Sequence record: NC_054927.1
From: Escherichia phage vB_EcoM_Ozark
DNA length: 64,000 bases
Strand: one strand, 5' to 3'
Shown here: positions 23,511 through 32,571 of the stretch, piece by piece
Layout: each line of letters starts with the position of its first letter
Position numbering within the stretch: position 1 is the stretch's first letter
The notes under the pieces: generated by a model
Seen by the model: only the letters and a program-made list of their open reading frames with translations
Database searches by the model: none
What the model was told of the DNA's origin: nothing
Program-made: the position numbers and the translations under genes

Positions 23511-23564
23511 TCCTCATGTTATGTCAGTAAGACTACTATAACACAACACGAGAGACTTGTAAAC
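23511..23564 (-). repeat. 54-bp promoter/leader cassette, copy A (52/54 identical to 38729-38782)
   Basis: Minus strand reads GTTTAC then 17-18 nt then TATAGT ... GAGGA; second copy lies upstream of alc. Confidence 0.7.
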
Positions 23565-25621
23565 TACATTTTGAACTTTTTAGACATTCCGTTAATGTTA
23601 ACCAAAGAAGCTAAGATTTGAGAAACTTCGTTTTCCTCTTCTTTTGATTCTTCTACAAGGAATTGATTAAATCCAGTCATTGGACGAACTTCACCAGTTT
23701 CCATTAGATGGTCGCCATCATATACTGATTCCTCTAATTGTTCAGAAGGAGGAACGATTGTACCTTCTATTAGATACTTGTTATAAGCAGTTTCTTTCAT
23801 AAAGTACGTACTTACTTTATTAATCTTCAGTAAAATTCCGCGCGGTAGAATAACTTCAGCTTCTGATGGAAATCCTGATAAATGACCTGGAACGATAACT
23901 TTGATTCGCTCAGCTCCTTTAATTACCATACCCACGCTAGTTTCAGCATCTTCATTAGCATATGTAGAATGACTACCCATATGCATCAAATCTTCTGCAT
24001 CAACGGAACCTTCTCCTTCACCAGAAAATACTGCACCGGAATCATCTAGAGCCATATAGTTTTTACCATGCTCACCGAAGATATTTGGTTTAAGCGATGT
24101 GGATACGAAGTTCTTGAAATAGAACATTTTATTTTCAATGTTATGACGCAAAGTTTTAAAGGTAACTTCTTGTCCACGGTAAAGTGTAGTTCCTGGAGGA
24201 AGAACTGATCCTTTGGCAAAGGCAGAATCCAACGTCTCGATGTGCTTAATAGCTCGTTCCATGTATTCTTCACGGGTAGAATCTGGTTTACCCAAAAGGA
24301 ACGAGTTCATTTCAACATATGAATCTGCACAATAATCTTCAATTACATCAGATTCAGCTTGGGTTAGTCCTTTTGGAGTTACTTCGGTGCTTGCGTATTC
24401 ATATGCCTGAGCAGCAGATTCATTAATCAATTTATAAATGCCATTCATTACAAATTGAATAATAGCTGTCTTTTCATCTGGCGTAGCTTTAGAACCTTTA
24501 ACTAAATCATTAATAATTTTCTTAATAACATCAAAGCTATTAGAAATATTAATGTCAGCAAGATCGCTTAAAATTTTATCAGTTTTATAATCAAAGAATT
24601 CTTTATTCTTTAAATATTCTTGAGAACCTTGATATGTTATATCGCTCTGCAACTTGATGGATGGATCACGTAAACGTGCATGGGCTAATGCAATGTGATT
24701 TCGGAAGTTTTCTAGTTCATAATCGCTAGATTTAAAACGAGAAGCACTCCTCATGCCACCGATAGCTCCTTTGCTGAAGTTTGAACCAATCTGAATAACG
24801 CCAGAGTTCATTGGTCCTTCTGCTTTATATACCGGAACTTTAGATTCAAACTCTTGATATTTCTTAGCAGCGAAGCTATCACCCTGAAGTGAAGCATCAA
24901 CAGTAGAATATTGAGCTTGTGCTGCTAATCGACGACTAATTTTAGTTTTCTGAATAACAGCTTGGTCCGTGCGCTTATCATTTTCTAAAGCAATAGAAGC
25001 AGCAACAGCAACAGCTTTAGGAACAGCATTACCTGTTTTAATGTCTACATAAACATCACCAACCTTCGATTCAACTTTTGTGAATAACTCAGTTGAAATA
25101 GGAGGTACACCTGGAATGTCTTCTAAATTGGCATTTTTACGGTAAACCATAATATATGCATATTTCTTATCATAGTCCCAGATTTCCTTTAAAAGAACAT
25201 ATCGACCTGCTCCTTTAGTACGTACTAAACGGTCAGCAATAACTTGCATTTGACGAGCTGCGCCATTTGTTTTACTTTTTAGTACGCGGAATAGGCATGC
25301 GTCGATTTTATACTGTTTCATTGTTTGAAGAGCAGTATCAAAAACAGCATTAATGACGCCAATTGGATTTCCACCCAAGTTTCTAAGCTTAACCAGTGAT
25401 AATTTCTCGTTGACACCTATCATTACGATATGCATCATTTTATCGCCTGGCTTAACGTTTTTATTTGTATCACCGCCAGAGGTGTATGTACAAAATCTAA
25501 ATCCAGGAAGCACACTTTCTTCACCAGCTTGAATAGCAAAAATTTGTGGTATTTTATGCTTAGGATTTAAGTTAACAACCGGCGCCGAAGCGCCGTCAAA
25601 TAATTCTGTAATAAGTTCCAT
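23564..25621 (-). CDS. Alt-family mono-ADP-ribosyltransferase paralogue
   Basis: 685-aa ORF; N-terminus MELITELFD nearly identical to the adjacent alt; C-terminal YRGQ, STS and EAEV elements fit an R-S-E ART triad. Confidence 0.8.
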   Translation of the reverse strand: MELITELFDGASAPVVNLNPKHKIPQIFAIQAGEESVLPGFRFCTYTSGGDTNKNVKPGDKMMHIVMIGVNEKLSLVKLRNLGGNPIGVINAVFDTALQTMKQYKIDACLFRVLKSKTNGAARQMQVIADRLVRTKGAGRYVLLKEIWDYDKKYAYIMVYRKNANLEDIPGVPPISTELFTKVESKVGDVYVDIKTGNAVPKAVAVAASIALENDKRTDQAVIQKTKISRRLAAQAQYSTVDASLQGDSFAAKKYQEFESKVPVYKAEGPMNSGVIQIGSNFSKGAIGGMRSASRFKSSDYELENFRNHIALAHARLRDPSIKLQSDITYQGSQEYLKNKEFFDYKTDKILSDLADINISNSFDVIKKIINDLVKGSKATPDEKTAIIQFVMNGIYKLINESAAQAYEYASTEVTPKGLTQAESDVIEDYCADSYVEMNSFLLGKPDSTREEYMERAIKHIETLDSAFAKGSVLPPGTTLYRGQEVTFKTLRHNIENKMFYFKNFVSTSLKPNIFGEHGKNYMALDDSGAVFSGEGEGSVDAEDLMHMGSHSTYANEDAETSVGMVIKGAERIKVIVPGHLSGFPSEAEVILPRGILLKINKVSTYFMKETAYNKYLIEGTIVPPSEQLEESVYDGDHLMETGEVRPMTGFNQFLVEESKEEENEVSQILASLVNINGMSKKFKM

Positions 25622-25624
25622 GAT

Positions 25625-27718
25625 TTATCCTTGAACGAACTTGTAAGGCATGTTTGTAATATCTATGCAAGACGCAATAATTCCAAGAGATGATTCTACT
25701 TTCTGTTTAACATTTGATGAAACAAATGATGCAAAGTCAACTCTATCTTCTATTTCAATACCACCAGTCATTGCAACTACTTCGCCGGTTTCCATTAAAC
25801 GGTCTCCGTCATAGATTACCGATTCGGTGAGTTCTTCTGTGGTCATAACTTCAGCTTGAATGAGTTTTGTATTATTAGACGTGGTTCCGTCATTATTAGA
25901 AGCATCAGTTATTTTATTAACTTTAACCATCAATCCGCGCGGTAGAATAACTTCAGCTTCTGTTGCTATTCCGAGACTTCCTGGATATACAACATTAACT
26001 TTATGAGCTCCATCAATTGCCCATCCTATTTGAACTTTAACGTATTCAGGATTTTCTTTATACGCTCTTATTTCGTTTGGATTAATAGTTATTCCTTCTT
26101 CATTTTTATCAACCGTTAATTCGTTACGAGCTTCTGGTTCTAAAAGACCAATACCAGCATGTGTAATTCCAAAACGCCCAAAAATGATAGGAGTTAAAGA
26201 AGTAGATACAAAATTTCTGAAATAGAACACTTTATTTTTAACTAGCGCTTCGTATATAGGAGCAGTCATACTTTGAGCACGATAAACTGTAATGCCTTCC
26301 GGTATGCGGTCACCATTTTCAAAAGCTGAATCTAAATTATTTATAGCAGATTCAATTTCTTTTTCACTCATTACATCATATCGTTCTGGATTGTAACGAC
26401 CTAAAAGAAGATTATTGATGTCAGTATATCCTGAACCACAATACTCTCTAATGCCGCGCTTTTGTGATGGAGTATATTTAGAACCATCACGGGCAATAGT
26501 AATATCAATCATTGGACCTGCACCAATTCCAGAAAAACTATAAATCATTCTTTTGAGGAATTTAGTTTTTGCTGCGTTCCAGGAATTTTTAGTCATTTCT
26601 TCCCAGACTTCATCTTGCTGCCCTTTACGAGTTTTATTATGTTTATCAAGCCAATTATCTTTATATTCTTCAAAGAATTTATTAATAGCTGCTGCGTATT
26701 TCTCTAAACATTTTATTGAAGTAGTTGGTTCATTTTTTATCGCGTTAAAAATTACATCTTTAATTTTTTCGGAAACTTCATTAACCTCACTTTTTGAAAA
26801 GAATTTATAGTCATAGTGAAGTTCATTCGCAGTTCCTTCGGCAATAATTTTTGCTGCCTTAGTTTTAGAAGCTAATGAATTAATTCCAAGCTTCATTTCT
26901 TCTGCTTCGGGAATTAAAGGAGCGGTAGCGGGTTTATTGAAATTAGCTGCGGTAGATTCATACTTCTGAAATAATTCACTTTCAAATCTAGAAGATTCCA
27001 ATGACTGACTTTGTGCAATTGCTCTACGGGAAATTTTAACTTTAACGATTACAGCTTGATCAGAACGTTTATCATTTTCTTGCGCAATAGATGCTGCAAT
27101 TGCCTCATTTTTAGTTACTTGAGCTCCAGTATCTTTATTGATATAAACATCACCGACCTTCGATTCAACTTTAGTAAAGAGCTCGGTACTAATTTCCGGA
27201 ACCCCTGGAATGTCTTCTAGTGATACATTTTTGCGATGTATAAGAATATATGCATACTTTTTATCGTAATCCCAGAGTTCCTTAAGAAGGACGTATCTGC
27301 CACCTGAACGACTACGGATAAGTCTATCAGCAATAACCTGAATTTGTCGAGCTTGACCAGCGGTTTTAGACTTAAGAATACGAAGCATACAGGCATCAAT
27401 TTTATACTGACGCATTGTTTGCATTGCAACAGTAAAAACTGAATTGATATAATTAATTGGGCTTGAACCAAGACCTTTCAATTTAGCAATTGAACCTTTA
27501 GCAGTTAATGTAAAAGGAACAATATGCATCATTTTATCGCCCATCTTTAAATCGCGATTAGTATCACCTCCAGATGTATAGGTACATAAACGAAAGCCTG
27601 GTTGTTCAATTGCGTCATCAACATGAACTGAAAAAATTTGTGGTATTTTCTTCTTTGGATTTAAGTTTGTAATCGGAAGAGTAGTATCTTCGTCAAATAA
27701 TTCTGTAATGAGTTCCAT
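25625..27718 (-). CDS. alt: Alt ADP-ribosyltransferase (packaged internal head protein)
   Basis: 697 aa from the second of two tandem ATGs (GAGAGGA SD); YRAQ, STS and EAEV ART motifs; late promoter upstream. Confidence 0.82.
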   Translation of the reverse strand: MELITELFDEDTTLPITNLNPKKKIPQIFSVHVDDAIEQPGFRLCTYTSGGDTNRDLKMGDKMMHIVPFTLTAKGSIAKLKGLGSSPINYINSVFTVAMQTMRQYKIDACMLRILKSKTAGQARQIQVIADRLIRSRSGGRYVLLKELWDYDKKYAYILIHRKNVSLEDIPGVPEISTELFTKVESKVGDVYINKDTGAQVTKNEAIAASIAQENDKRSDQAVIVKVKISRRAIAQSQSLESSRFESELFQKYESTAANFNKPATAPLIPEAEEMKLGINSLASKTKAAKIIAEGTANELHYDYKFFSKSEVNEVSEKIKDVIFNAIKNEPTTSIKCLEKYAAAINKFFEEYKDNWLDKHNKTRKGQQDEVWEEMTKNSWNAAKTKFLKRMIYSFSGIGAGPMIDITIARDGSKYTPSQKRGIREYCGSGYTDINNLLLGRYNPERYDVMSEKEIESAINNLDSAFENGDRIPEGITVYRAQSMTAPIYEALVKNKVFYFRNFVSTSLTPIIFGRFGITHAGIGLLEPEARNELTVDKNEEGITINPNEIRAYKENPEYVKVQIGWAIDGAHKVNVVYPGSLGIATEAEVILPRGLMVKVNKITDASNNDGTTSNNTKLIQAEVMTTEELTESVIYDGDRLMETGEVVAMTGGIEIEDRVDFASFVSSNVKQKVESSLGIIASCIDITNMPYKFVQG

Positions 27719-27741
27719 CATATCCTCTCTAGTGTTTATTC

Positions 27742-27770: not shown

Positions 27771-27959
27771 TTAATAATCTATTGGTAAGAGAGTACGATA
27801 TATTTCAAACTTTGGACCTTTTTCATAAGCATCAAAAGTTTCTGTGAATTTATTATAAGCATATGCATCTATAAATTCAATCATGATTTGTGATACAGAA
27901 GTAGAAACATCTCCACCTTCTTTTTGAGCCACGACAATTGTTTCTAAGTAAGCTTTCAT
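27771..27959 (-). CDS. hypothetical small protein downstream of DNA ligase
   Basis: 62-aa ORF whose start overlaps the gene 30 stop. Confidence 0.4.
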   Translation of the reverse strand: MKAYLETIVVAQKEGGDVSTSVSQIMIEFIDAYAYNKFTETFDAYEKGPKFEIYRTLLPIDY

Positions 27960-29419
27960 AAACCAGTTACCTCATGAAAATCACCAAATACATCCTCGAA
28001 TGTATTAGCTTTAGTTTTATCTTCACGCAAACGAATCGCAATTGGAAGAAATAATTTAACGTAATCAGTGCGGCCATCGGATTTTAACCAACCGTTGCAT
28101 TCGCACTCTAGAATTTTTCCAATATAATAATTTTGGTTTTCCATAATGCGAGTACGGTCAAGTTCATGTGATTTTACGCCGGCTTTATCTTTTAAGCCTG
28201 AACCGGCATTTACCTTAATTTTTCCACACTCTGACTCAAGAATAAATCCACCTGCTTTAGTAGGGTCTTTACGGTGAGGATAAATTCCTACAATTTTTAA
28301 ATCAACATCAATTACTTCTTTAAATTTATAGAGATTTTTTGAACGAGCATTTTCCCATAATCCATCGATATTTTTGAGAATAATACCTTCAAGACCTTGG
28401 TCAATATACTTTTTATAAATTACCTTAGCTTCATCTAGGTTATTTACTACTTGGTTTTCAATTAAAATTACTTTATCATATCCTGATGTCATTTGTTCTA
28501 ATTTAGAAAAACGTACATCATATTTTAAACGAAATGCTGGAAGACCGTATATTTCTACCAACGGAACATAATCCCAGACCTGAAACTTCATGCATTGAGC
28601 TTCTTTTTCTGAAATAGTTCCCTTTAAAGATTTATTAGCGATTCCATTAGAAGTAGTACGTGATTCAGCTACTTCAGCAAACTCTTTAGCTTTACTAATT
28701 TCAGGATAAGCATCAAAAAGAAAATCTAGGCCTTCTGGCTCCTTTTTAACTTGCTCATGGTATACCAATTCGCCATCAATTAACACACCTTCTGGATGAA
28801 TCTGGCGGGCTTCAGCGGTCATTTTGATTAACTCTTCCTTAAGAAGATCTAATCCTAGATATTCATTACCAGCTCGTGATAAAAGACGGACATCATCTAA
28901 TTCATCGCCTCGGACTTCAGCAAAACACCTGGCTCCATCTGCTTTTAACTGTGCAAAGGCTGGAAATTTGATATTCTTACTAATGCCCTTTTCATCATAA
29001 GAACTTGCCAGCATTTGAGGTTGTTCAGGAATTAAACCTGGCCAAACTTTGTTTGCAATAGATACTGAAGCACCGCATTCAAGGTCTCGCATCATCACTC
29101 GACGCAAAACTTCAACATCATCCTTTTTACCATCGGTGATATATCCAGTCAATTCCTCAATTGCAGCATTTCCGGTCAATTTCCGAGTAGCTAACGTGAA
29201 TTCAATGAAGTCAAGCATATCGGTAATGGTCAGCATTCCAAAACTCTGGGTAGCAATACCAGGTTTAGGCCATTTCTTGATATAATACTGTAACCCACGA
29301 GAATAAGTTAGACGATATACTCGTTTAAGCAATTCATTATCTTTATTCTTTTCAAGAATTGCTTGCTTCTGCTTAGTTGATCCAATAGATGCTATTTCAT
29401 TCAGAATTTTAAGAATCAT
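27956..29419 (-). CDS. 30: ATP-dependent DNA ligase
   Basis: 487-aa ORF starting MILKILNEIASIGSTKQKQAILEKN with adenylation motif KADGAR. Confidence 0.95.
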   Translation of the reverse strand: MILKILNEIASIGSTKQKQAILEKNKDNELLKRVYRLTYSRGLQYYIKKWPKPGIATQSFGMLTITDMLDFIEFTLATRKLTGNAAIEELTGYITDGKKDDVEVLRRVMMRDLECGASVSIANKVWPGLIPEQPQMLASSYDEKGISKNIKFPAFAQLKADGARCFAEVRGDELDDVRLLSRAGNEYLGLDLLKEELIKMTAEARQIHPEGVLIDGELVYHEQVKKEPEGLDFLFDAYPEISKAKEFAEVAESRTTSNGIANKSLKGTISEKEAQCMKFQVWDYVPLVEIYGLPAFRLKYDVRFSKLEQMTSGYDKVILIENQVVNNLDEAKVIYKKYIDQGLEGIILKNIDGLWENARSKNLYKFKEVIDVDLKIVGIYPHRKDPTKAGGFILESECGKIKVNAGSGLKDKAGVKSHELDRTRIMENQNYYIGKILECECNGWLKSDGRTDYVKLFLPIAIRLREDKTKANTFEDVFGDFHEVTGL

Positions 29420-29685
29420 TGTTCATCCTTCAGAGTTTGATTTACAGCTCTATTATAAATCAATTCATCATTAAGCTCAGTCAAAGACCTATGATATGTA
29501 GTTCTAACTTTATTTCCTTGCATCCAGTGCTTGACGTAAATGAAACCTTGCTCTACACATTTTTTAAAAATTCGTTCGTCTTTTTGAGCTCGGAATTCTG
29601 GATTGCATCTAAAAAATTGATTTACGTGACCGTAATCACGTGTAGTATTACCTTCATTTTCATAAATAGTGTGAACGACAAACAT
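29416..29685 (-). CDS. hypothetical protein (30.1-like)
   Basis: 89-aa ORF overlapping the gene 30 start. Confidence 0.5.
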   Translation of the reverse strand: MFVVHTIYENEGNTTRDYGHVNQFFRCNPEFRAQKDERIFKKCVEQGFIYVKHWMQGNKVRTTYHRSLTELNDELIYNRAVNQTLKDEQ

Positions 29686-30518
29686 TAGAATGCTCCTTGG
29701 AAAATATTATCACCACTAGTAAATCTATTAAAATACCCTGCATCACCAGGCTTAGTATAGTTCCATGTCTGAAACGGATGTGTCTGATATAGATGATATG
29801 GATTATAAGGATTAAATCCAGGAGTTCTCCAGGTAGTGTTCCAACGAAAAGAATCGTTTTTAACCATCTTCTCAATTACATCTTTTATAGCTTTTTCACT
29901 ATCAAAACTTTCTTTATTTTCCTTCGGTGAAAAAAGCTTATTTTCTACATCATTCCATGTATAAACTCGCTGAGCGGTTTTTGGAATATTGTCACGCTCT
30001 CCTCGCGCCATCCAATAAACAGGAACATTTAATATTTCACTCGCATGATCGCAGTGGTGAGCGAGATCGTCAATATAACAAATTACGTTATATTTCTCTT
30101 TTGCCTTTTTGAACAACTCTTCTTTTGAAGAATCATGACCACACATCATTACTTCTGAGAAGGCACCAGGAAAAAGAGCATTCAAATTAAATTGACGATT
30201 CAACAGAGCGTCAATAGAATCACCCAACGCTGTAACAGCTACAAAATTATAATCTTCTTTTAATTTGTTAATTACGCACAGGGCGTCTTTATATGGAGAC
30301 AAATAACGAATAAAATCTGAACGATTGTATTTTTCAATTAACTTGACGCCAAGTTCTTCATCACAATTAAAGAGTTTACCCGGAGAAATAAATTTCTCAT
30401 CTTGGATCATTTTTAAAATATGTTCTAACGGAAGATTATATTTCTGAGCAAAATAAGGAAGGCCTGATTGCCAGCTTAAACATACTCCATCAATATCAGT
30501 TAAAATAGTAGGCTTCAT
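29685..30518 (-). CDS. HAD-superfamily phosphatase-like protein (30.2-like)
   Basis: 277-aa ORF with N-terminal DIDGV motif typical of HAD motif I. Confidence 0.55.
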   Translation of the reverse strand: MKPTILTDIDGVCLSWQSGLPYFAQKYNLPLEHILKMIQDEKFISPGKLFNCDEELGVKLIEKYNRSDFIRYLSPYKDALCVINKLKEDYNFVAVTALGDSIDALLNRQFNLNALFPGAFSEVMMCGHDSSKEELFKKAKEKYNVICYIDDLAHHCDHASEILNVPVYWMARGERDNIPKTAQRVYTWNDVENKLFSPKENKESFDSEKAIKDVIEKMVKNDSFRWNTTWRTPGFNPYNPYHLYQTHPFQTWNYTKPGDAGYFNRFTSGDNIFQGAF

Positions 30519-30979
30519 AGAGAGTCTCTTAATAGATTTAACACATCAATAAATTCAGCTTCGGTTAGTATTGTATCATCTTTTGTTAGACCACTAGCCA
30601 TGCTGTGCTTCAAAACTTTTCCTTTCGAGGCTTGTAATGCATCACGAAAGCCCTTGTTTTGGATCGCTGCTTCAAAATATGCATTTGTGTATAATTCTTT
30701 CCACGCCGGGGAGTATCTTGAAAACGGAACTCCAATCCAGAAGAGGGTCCCACGGTCCTGAGCTCTAGCATAAGACCTTCCAGCTTGTTGGGCGGCAAGC
30801 CCGGATAACCCAAATATACGACGTTGTTGTTCAACATTTTTCACCTTACACCCTTGGAGGAATCCTTCAAGACCTCCAAATTGAATACCATCCATAACGA
30901 AAGGCCATTGGGCGAAATTACTTAATGCGCATGATGGCCATCTAAAATTACTTCTAATCTCTAACTCAGACATTTTCAA
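30515..30979 (-). CDS. NADAR/YbiA-like domain protein (30.3-like)
   Basis: 154-aa ORF with SNFAQWPF and FxxxEGFLQ segments resembling the NADAR family. Confidence 0.55.
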   Translation of the reverse strand: MKMSELEIRSNFRWPSCALSNFAQWPFVMDGIQFGGLEGFLQGCKVKNVEQQRRIFGLSGLAAQQAGRSYARAQDRGTLFWIGVPFSRYSPAWKELYTNAYFEAAIQNKGFRDALQASKGKVLKHSMASGLTKDDTILTEAEFIDVLNLLRDSL

Positions 30980-31172
30980 TGCTTATAATTTCAACATCAG
31001 CCCAATGACCATAGCAAGGAAGACGAAATTCAACTGGCCAGTTAGGGTCCTTTTCTAATATAATAGACTTAACTTGTGGTTCTTCGTGTTCATCAGTATA
31101 CGGATTTTTATCTGTTACTTTATATGTGACCTTAATGTACTGAATTCCAAAAATCTTATTAATTATATTCAT
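30966..31172 (-). CDS. hypothetical protein
   Basis: 68-aa ORF in a tightly packed early-gene run. Confidence 0.4.
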   Translation of the reverse strand: MNIINKIFGIQYIKVTYKVTDKNPYTDEHEEPQVKSIILEKDPNWPVEFRLPCYGHWADVEIISIENV

Positions 31173-32128: not shown

Positions 32129-32461
32129 TTATTTTACTACTTTCCAATGCTGCATGTCAAGTTTACCAACTTTTTTCATCTTCTCAATTAAGCGTTCTGC
32201 ACGTTGGCGAGCTGTAACATAATGCCATTCGCCTAATTCATTTTGTTCAATTTTTCCAACGATTACTGTATTCAATTCATAAATCCAACCAGTAAAGAAA
32301 TTATGAACTTGAATTGTAAAGGTGAAATCTGTTCCCATACCTTCTGTTGTTTCTACTTCAATAATATCACCTTCAACTGCCATTAAGAACCACATAGTTT
32401 CATTATATTTACCATTGAAGCATTTAGTTTTAACTGCAGCGTTCAGATTAATCGTTTTCAT
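32129..32461 (-). CDS. hypothetical protein
   Basis: 110-aa ATG-initiated ORF. Confidence 0.45.
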   Translation of the reverse strand: MKTINLNAAVKTKCFNGKYNETMWFLMAVEGDIIEVETTEGMGTDFTFTIQVHNFFTGWIYELNTVIVGKIEQNELGEWHYVTARQRAERLIEKMKKVGKLDMQHWKVVK

Positions 32462-32571
32462 TTTATTCTCCTTTGTTTGTGTAAGATAATACTATCACAA
32501 AGGAACTATACTGTAAACAACTTTATGCAATCTTTGGAAAATAAAAAAGGACTCCCGAAGGAGTCCTCAAC

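Follow-up and report, generated by a model that had tools for sequence, protein, structure and literature searches.

What do two small genes lying upstream of the DNA ligase gene of a T4-like phage encode, and do they form a functional unit with the ADP-ribosyltransferase genes on the other side of the ligase? The question is raised by the window, a stretch of 64,000 nucleotides of Escherichia phage vB_EcoM_Ozark (sequence record NC_054927.1), a T4-like phage (Tequatrovirus), in which a first-pass annotation made from the sequence alone had noticed a NADAR-like and a HAD-like gene and had supposed that, together with two Alt enzymes, they make up a block of writers and an eraser of ADP-ribosylation which might counteract DarT-like toxins of the host. 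The reading preferred here, to which a probability of about 0.88 is assigned, is that the first gene (T4 gene 30.3) is adfN, encoding an anti-DarTG1 glycohydrolase, and that the second (gene 30.2) encodes a separate, NT5C-like HAD phosphatase.

Table 1. Features of the gene 30.4 to alt region, in positions of the window.
Feature	Position	Strand	Remarks
gene 30.4	30966..31172	(-)	68 aa; adfN start codon inside its 3' end
in-frame TTG-AAA extension of the adfN ORF	30974..30979	(-)	start used in the first-pass annotation (30515-30979, 154 aa)
adfN (T4 gene 30.3)	30515..30973	(-)	152 aa from ATG; NADAR fold; PF08010
gene 30.2, whole ORF	29685-30518	(-)	277 aa
gene 30.2, residues 1-195	29934..30518	(-)	predicted HAD-superfamily phosphatase domain with four-helix C1-type cap
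gene 30.2, residues 196-277	29685..29933	(-)	variable, mostly disordered tail; pLDDT 44-65 past residue 200
gene 30.1 (DUF3045)	29416..29685	(-)	89 aa; PF11243, E = 2.9e-64; separates 30.2 from the ligase
gene 30, ATP-dependent DNA ligase	27956..29419	(-)	PF01068, E = 2.4e-32
alt, 698-aa Alt ADP-ribosyltransferase	25625..27721	(-)	PF03496, E = 2.1e-37; positional orthologue of T4 Alt
second Alt paralogue, intact, 685 aa	23564..25621	(-)	PF03496, E = 5.8e-20

A 1.8-kb query around the locus retrieved 690 phage records, mostly of Escherichia and Shigella Tequatroviruses, with a top identity of 97.8%. On the minus strand genes 30.4, 30.3, 30.2, 30.1 and 30 (the ligase) follow one another and are succeeded by alt.1, the 698-aa Alt and its 685-aa paralogue, which is the order found in T4 (Table 1), and the part from 30.4 to the ligase is a T4-type early-gene run. 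The stops and starts of this run overlap: the ATG of adfN lies within the end of 30.4, genes 30.3 and 30.2 overlap in ATGA, 30.2 and 30.1 in TAATG, and 30.1 and 30 again in ATGA. A terminator-like site between 30.3 and the ligase was not seen, and promoter and terminator scans gave no enrichment over shuffled sequence. Both ORFs were found where the first-pass annotation had placed them, with the segments ALSNFAQWPF and LEGFLQG in the first and TDIDGVCL in the second, and, as judged from their sequences, they are genuine genes and not chance ORFs. The distances given there were in part too short, that is, the ligase is near but is separated from 30.2 by 266 bp occupied by gene 30.1, and of the two Alt genes placed within about 3 kb, the first is indeed about 2-3 kb away but the second about 4-5 kb.

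The product of gene 30.3 is identical with T4 gp30.3 at 150 of 152 positions (99%) and is encoded in the syntenic slot. The two proteins have the same length, the same residues E36, K43 and H123 and the same C-terminal helix, and the two substitutions, at positions 80 (I80 in the window, L in T4) and 125 (M125 in the window, I in T4), are both conservative; nothing suggests a functional difference. Furthermore, the family model of bacteriophage protein GP30.3 (PF08010) is matched over its full extent (model positions 1-138 of 138) at E = 4.5e-70 and 234 bits, the cut-off being 36 bits. In relatives as distant as 40% identity E36, K43 and H123 do not vary, and in the window the protein is full length with its C-terminal helix (residues 138-151) intact. 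The ORF of 154 aa is real, but the actual start of adfN is probably the ATG at 30973, two codons downstream of the TTG, which gives a protein of 152 aa and leaves the TTG-AAA extension probably untranslated as a part of AdfN. This choice of start is based on the T4 annotation, on the position of the ATG within the last codons of 30.4 and on the published numbering of E36 and K43, which fits it.

The HMM search recommended in the first-pass annotation was negative for both families when the single sequences of the window were used: neither a NADAR nor a HAD match was obtained in Pfam, NCBIfam or the PDB sequences, and Pfam NADAR (PF08719) did not match the AdfN sequence at E ≤ 1. Because a single-sequence search was thus negative for an idea that is correct, family profiles and structures were used. 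The AF2 model of AdfN (pLDDT 83.6, pTM 0.81) has the NADAR topology, and a Foldseek search with it gave a probability of at least 0.84 for three structures only, namely 2b3w (YbiA; E = 3.5e-4, TMq 0.61), 8bat (the NADAR of G. lovleyi) and 8bau (PnNADAR of Phytophthora), which bears out the NADAR/YbiA fold foreseen for the small ORF. With the AdfN family profile, E. coli YbiA ranks first among the PDB sequences (E = 0.056), the pattern SNFAxWP...E...K being aligned, and PF08719 is weakly matched by three of ten AdfN relatives (best E = 0.0031). Since PF08719 is not matched by the sequence itself and the E value of the YbiA profile match is of this size, the NADAR membership of AdfN rests on the structure, the catalytic residues and the literature. 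E36 and K43 are equivalent to the catalytic E43 and K50 of PnNADAR (PMC11825919; PMC11543638). The last strand of the model (residues 120-123) contains H123, and a His in this strand as the third catalytic residue, replacing the Glu of YbiA or the Asp of BC4488 and the DarG1 type, is the mark of the phage gp30.3 subfamily of NADARs (PMC11125620; PMC11543638).

The action of AdfN as a NADAR eraser that counters DarT is already known and was shown experimentally by others. [quoted passage not shown] According to that study, deletion of adfN makes T4 and T2 sensitive to DarTG1, and expression of adfN rescues RB69, whose own allele is 15 residues shorter by truncation and is defective. In addition, E36A and K43A weaken T4 AdfN, the purified T4 protein takes ADP-ribose off DarT1-modified DNA, T2 AdfN, 98% identical to that of T4, is functional, and DarTG2 is not countered (PMC11825919). 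In vitro, the T4 protein de-ADP-ribosylates guanine specifically (Toxins 2024, PMC11125620), and in HIDEN-SEQ (bioRxiv 10.1101/2025.11.20.689424) insertions in 30.3 were lost solely with DarTG1. T4 AdfN, a guanine-specific DNA ADP-ribosylglycohydrolase, is necessary and sufficient for DarTG1 resistance (Nat Commun 2025; Toxins 2024; HIDEN-SEQ 2025). On the other hand, DarT1 is not neutralised by AdfN in uninfected cells, and phages other than T-even phages are barely rescued (PMC11825919; PMC11125620). The surmise of an eraser countering DarT is therefore right as far as the T4 orthologue is concerned, which frees guanine in DNA of ADP-ribose and counters DarT1, and the same anti-DarTG1 function is expected of the window allele, because it is 99% identical to T4 AdfN and full length, with the catalytic residues and the C-terminal helix intact. 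This identity predicts that the phage of the window would resist DarTG1 hosts, which is useful in choosing phages for host-range and therapy work.

The mechanism would be as follows. In a DarTG1 host, the DarT1 toxin ADP-ribosylates guanines of the phage DNA and thereby blocks its replication, and AdfN would sever the N-glycosidic bond by which ADP-ribose is attached to the guanines, so that the adducts are removed and the phage replicates. E36 would touch the distal ribose and K43 bind the phosphates, and H123 would stand in for the third catalytic acid. The DarG1-type NADARs (G. lovleyi 8bat and the E. coli C7 NADAR) and YbiA (2b3w) have the fold, the Glu/Lys pair and the guanine-ADPr chemistry of AdfN. 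In contrast to these proteins, AdfN is smaller, lacks the extensions and an adjacent DarT, and cannot serve as an antitoxin in uninfected cells. A DarT toxin gene was not found beside adfN, the neighbours of which are 30.4 and 30.2; the nearby ADP-ribosyltransferases, 2-5 kb off, are solely of the Alt type (PF03496). AdfN is consequently an antitoxin-like orphan rather than a toxin-antitoxin system, as was stated for AdfN in PMC11825919.

Gene 30.2 is a different matter. Its product in the window is 95% identical to T4 gp30.2, and its homologues are many: a word-indexed search yielded 100 clusters at E ≤ 1e-3, most of them far lower, and an exhaustive profile search yielded 1,488 clusters (50% identity). 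The four motifs of the HAD superfamily can be recognized as D8-x-D10-G (I), T96 (II), K132 (III) and D150-D151 (IV); D8, D10, G11, K132, D150 and D151 show no variation among 40 relatives and T96 hardly any, and this holds in 129 wider relatives. The structural model is confident for residues 1-195 and disordered past about residue 200, and between motifs I and II it has the cap helices 16-26, 32-40, 46-50 and 54-66. Only HAD proteins were found with it by Foldseek, the best target-normalised scores being 0.71 for 3bwv and 0.62-0.67 for cdN and mdN. In full-length superposition, proteins of the NT5C type (3bwv and cdN) are best, with 165 of 168 residues aligned, and with the gp30.2 profile mouse cdN is on top of the PDB sequences (E = 0.011). 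As judged from the model, gp30.2 is a HAD-fold protein with four intact motifs and a putative phosphatase, and the HAD-like character attributed to the 277-aa ORF is upheld.

The affinity to NT5C, the family of 5'(3')-deoxyribonucleotidases, can also be followed in the families. The gp30.2 sequence of the window has no match in NCBIfam or in Pfam, the HAD and NT5C models included. Among its relatives, PF00702 is weakly matched by 12 of the 40 close ones (best E = 3.5e-4), and NT5C (PF06941) by seven of the 40 close and 35 of the 129 wider ones (best E = 4.2e-10). One protein (P0230), which the gp30.2 profile reaches with E = 3.8e-22, scores 35.6 bits against the curated NT5C cut-off of 24.8. 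By this sequence route, the link between gp30.2 and NT5C is transitive and not direct. With the members of the NT5C family (human and mouse cdN and mdN, 3bwv of S. epidermidis and Dtm of phage PBS1) gp30.2 has in common the HAD core, a cap predicted to consist of four helices, and the sequence D-x-D-G-V in motif I, and it possesses a nearly invariant aromatic residue eight positions after the nucleophile. This residue, W16, is conserved in at least 90% of cases and may be the counterpart of the base-stacking Phe of cdN and mdN. In contrast, gp30.2 is only 15-20% identical to the NT5C enzymes and carries an additional disordered tail of 80 residues with a conserved terminal motif. PBS1 Dtm is an already characterised NT5C-like dTMP phosphatase of a phage. 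From the fold, the motifs and this family affinity we infer that gp30.2 is an NT5C-like HAD phosphomonoesterase with a small nucleotide as its substrate. The enzyme would be Mg2+-dependent, D8 serving as the nucleophile, D10 as the general acid/base, T96 and K132 as ligands of the phosphate and D150 and D151 as ligands of the metal, and its helical cap would shut over a substrate of small size, for which a (deoxy)nucleoside monophosphate is the most probable candidate. A search of the literature on gp30.2 brought up neither a functional study nor biochemical data, and as no Pfam matches were obtained for the fusion partners of gp30.2-like domains, these offered no hint of a function. A tie to the PUA-Cal-HAD defence triggered by m6-dAMP was also considered and dropped, as the paper on PUA-Cal-HAD contains nothing relevant. 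For this protein, which is widespread in T4-like phages, the annotation "NT5C-like HAD phosphatase" is now appropriate.

Whether 30.2 is coupled to adfN or to the ligase can be judged from co-occurrence and from transposon insertion data. The sample for the former consisted of 78 related viral loci, all T4-like with a conserved gene order, which represent 26 gp30.2 lineages at 70% identity. A ligase gene belongs to the locus in 24 of these lineages, which makes it the most consistently kept neighbour of 30.2; an AdfN-type gene is present in 10 and absent nearby in 16. In loci with both genes, adfN always directly precedes 30.2 and has the same orientation. In a rearranged locus (L080), whose gp30.2 is 40% identical, the ligase is about 670 bp away with the order reversed. 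Another locus (L069) has 30.2 in the syntenic slot without a ligase, so that part of the adjacency of 30.2 and the ligase is inherited gene order, and as a proof of functional coupling this adjacency is weakened both by L069 and by the uniformly T4-like gene order. As for the insertion data, sheet S6 of the HIDEN-SEQ supplement compares T4 transposon insertions between the control and DarTG1. Insertions in 30.3 (adfN) have a log2FC of -7.25 (adjusted p = 0) and those in 30.4 one of -1.79 (adjusted p = 0.014), the latter, mild depletion being likely due to polarity on adfN. With adjusted p = 1 in each case, the values are -0.12 for 30.2 (71 sites), -0.01 for alt and -0.34 for 61.2 (adfA). Insertions in 30.2 were likewise neutral in the RnlAB and the LB-versus-M9 comparisons, and T4 30.2 is dispensable on K-12, insertions having been found at 72 of 72 TA sites, whereas the ligase is essential. 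Because 30.2 and alt are neutral under DarTG1, gp30.2 is not the helper of AdfN as far as this phenotype is concerned, and Alt has no part in it; gene 30.2 is outside the anti-DarT mechanism.

The 698-aa Alt of the window is 70% identical to T4 Alt, its middle section being diverged, and the 685-aa paralogue is 41% identical to Alt; in T4, nothing but the remnants alt.-1 and alt.-2 is present at the position of this second gene. Alt is a protein (arginine) ADP-ribosyltransferase, and it is extremely improbable that AdfN reverses or limits the ADP-ribosylation written by it, shielding phage DNA or proteins, and that the clustering of the genes reflects such a coupling. Although adfN and the Alt genes are a few kb apart and T4-like NADARs were described as early genes expressed alongside ADP-ribosyltransferases (Iyer et al. 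2022), the substrate for which NADAR activity was demonstrated is guanine-ADPr DNA (PMC11125620; PMC11543638), whereas Alt modifies proteins, the adfN phenotype is confined to DarTG1 hosts, in which alt insertions are neutral, and AdfN-type genes occur in loci without any Alt within 6 kb (e.g., L036-L041). A literature search found no assay of a NADAR on Alt products. The Alt enzymes are context only, without a functional tie to adfN. One module of Alt writers, NADAR eraser and HAD protein, as first envisaged, is not supported in view of the neutrality of 30.2 and alt under DarTG1 and of the gp30.2 lineages without an AdfN-type gene, and an ADP-ribosylation module should not be made to include the HAD gene or the Alts in annotations. 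There is hardly any chance, too, that gp30.2 is a missing T-even helper which activates AdfN or disposes of the freed ADP-ribose or ribose phosphate. Such a role would account for the full activity of AdfN in T-even infection only, would agree with the proposal that AdfN may need an additional T-even protein (PMC11825919), and would suit the ATGA overlap and the constant position of adfN upstream of 30.2. Nevertheless, the HIDEN-SEQ DarTG1 table, in which 30.3 insertions are lost and those in 30.2 are not, and the co-occurrence data led to its rejection, the affinity of gp30.2 is to nucleotidases and not to ADPr-processing enzymes, and for the plaque and fitness phenotype the idea is largely refuted. 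It is also very unlikely that the physiological substrates of AdfN are soluble signals derived from ADP-ribose or by-products of RNA repair and not DNA adducts; this was proposed for phage NADARs from context before experiments were available, and the direct evidence of DNA de-ADP-ribosylation and the DarT1-specific phenotype speak against it, although it is not exclusive of the role of AdfN on DNA.

For gp30.2, the neighbouring ligase invites the thought of a DNA 3'-phosphatase, an end-healing partner which readies nicks for sealing. This is unlikely. Polynucleotide phosphatases are capless in terms of the HAD cap types, and a cap usually means a small-molecule substrate, but in the gp30.2 model the four helices between motifs I and II form a cap, and the protein is fitted better over its full length by proteins of the NT5C type. 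Moreover, T4-like phages already encode PseT (T4 Pnkp), the phosphatase domain of which has no cap and is part of a fusion with a kinase, whereas gp30.2 is capped and stands alone; the ligase is essential and 30.2 is not, and L069 keeps 30.2 without a ligase. A low probability is also given to the idea that gp30.2, instead of being a housekeeping nucleotidase, is a ligase-linked NT5C-like phosphatase docked at the replisome, which would be tethered by the conserved C-terminal motif of its tail to a replication or repair protein and would destroy a specific nucleotide; as candidates for the latter, a modified dNMP or another nucleotide-derived trigger or signal of a host defence beyond the conditions compared above are long shots. 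If true, the docked enzyme would constitute a new class of phage counter-defence or of repair accessory. For the NT5C-like phosphatase preferred here, the disordered tail may likewise serve to dock the enzyme to a partner.

The tail of gp30.2 contains one helix (residues 207-220), and the terminal motif GIEYLxxQPT is found in 16 of 57 representatives with long tails. In the window, this motif is present as the allelic variant GDAGY-FNRFT. A frameshift was considered as the origin of the odd motif and ruled out, the variant being an allele with an in-frame deletion of 3 nt which the window has in common with one of the related loci (L002).

In the published HIDEN-SEQ transposon insertion screen of T4, which compares a control with DarTG1, gene 30.4 was significantly depleted under DarTG1 (log2FC -1.79, adjusted p 0.014), and gene 30.5 stood at -3.0, a non-significant value. 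The depletion of 30.4 is probably due to polarity on adfN (T4 gene 30.3), which encodes the NADAR-fold anti-DarTG1 enzyme and has its start inside 30.4; the same result may also mean that 30.4 itself really contributes under DarTG1. Farther upstream on the minus strand, a terminator-like hairpin is followed downstream by a promoter-like site, and this pair may mark the start of a transcription unit that passes through 30.7 and extends to the ligase gene; in the scan of the region, the totals of promoter-like and terminator-like sites showed no excess over the shuffled expectation.

Features of the adfN, gp30.2 and Alt regions and of related loci and proteins
Feature	Position	Strand	Description	Basis
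Second Alt-type ADP-ribosyltransferase	23564-25621	-	685 aa, intact; 41% identity to adjoining Alt	
Alt orthologue	25625-27721	-	mosaic relative to T4 Alt; 70% identity overall	
Terminal short motif, gp30.2 disordered tail	29685-29780	-		comparison with relatives
Putative out-of-frame ORF 30.3'	30610-30837	-	+1 frame inside adfN; annotated in T4 (75 aa), also in window	
Gene 30.4	30966-31172	-		
Promoter-like site	32131-32160	-	TTGACA-18-TAAAAT, 11/12 matches, best of region	sequence scan
Terminator-like hairpin, strong	32547-32568	-	9 bp stem, 5 GC pairs, T-run	sequence scan
Shortened adfN ORF, one related phage	L012:5636-6004		122 aa; 62% identity over reference length	
gp30.2 relative P0171			591 aa; HAD domain C-terminal	
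gp30.2 relative P0233			660 aa; HAD domain C-terminal	
gp30.2 relative P0124			430 aa; HAD domain N-terminal	

Among the 13 distinct adfN alleles with at least 84% identity, 12 keep the +1 frame, which holds the putative ORF 30.3', free of stops over 76 codons, and the remaining one, from the related viral locus L009, does so over 61 codons. In more distant alleles the open stretch of this frame varies from 22 to 91 codons, and that of the +2 frame in adfN alleles is 17-52 codons. The shortened adfN ORF of locus L012 is likened to the truncated allele of RB69, and natural loss-of-function alleles of adfN may be common. In addition, the T4 gp30.3 construct in Toxins 2024 (PMC11125620) is given as residues 1-208, which does not match the 152 aa of T4 gp30.3; a tag, another annotation or another phage protein may be the cause of this numbering.

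As for gp30.2, the predicted HAD-fold phosphatase, 57 cluster representatives have a long tail, and in 16 of them, including P0047, P0068 and P0070, it closes with the conserved sequence (G)TGIEYLx[RQ]QPT. The T4 version is GGIEYLYNRPT, whereas the window carries the variant GDAGY-FNRFT, shared with the related locus L002, because of an in-frame 3-nt deletion. The terminal motif looks like a docking motif. Furthermore, gp30.2-like HAD domains are also fused to large regions without a Pfam match (P0171, P0233 and P0124).

The Alt region of the window also differs from that of T4. Where the window carries the intact paralogue, all that is left in T4 is alt.-1 and alt.-2, the decayed remnants of a duplication. 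The Alt orthologue is almost the same as T4 Alt at its two ends (residues 1-245 and about 600-698), and the section between them, which takes in a large part of the catalytic region, has diverged strongly from T4 Alt. This mosaic pattern suggests recombinational or diversifying exchange.
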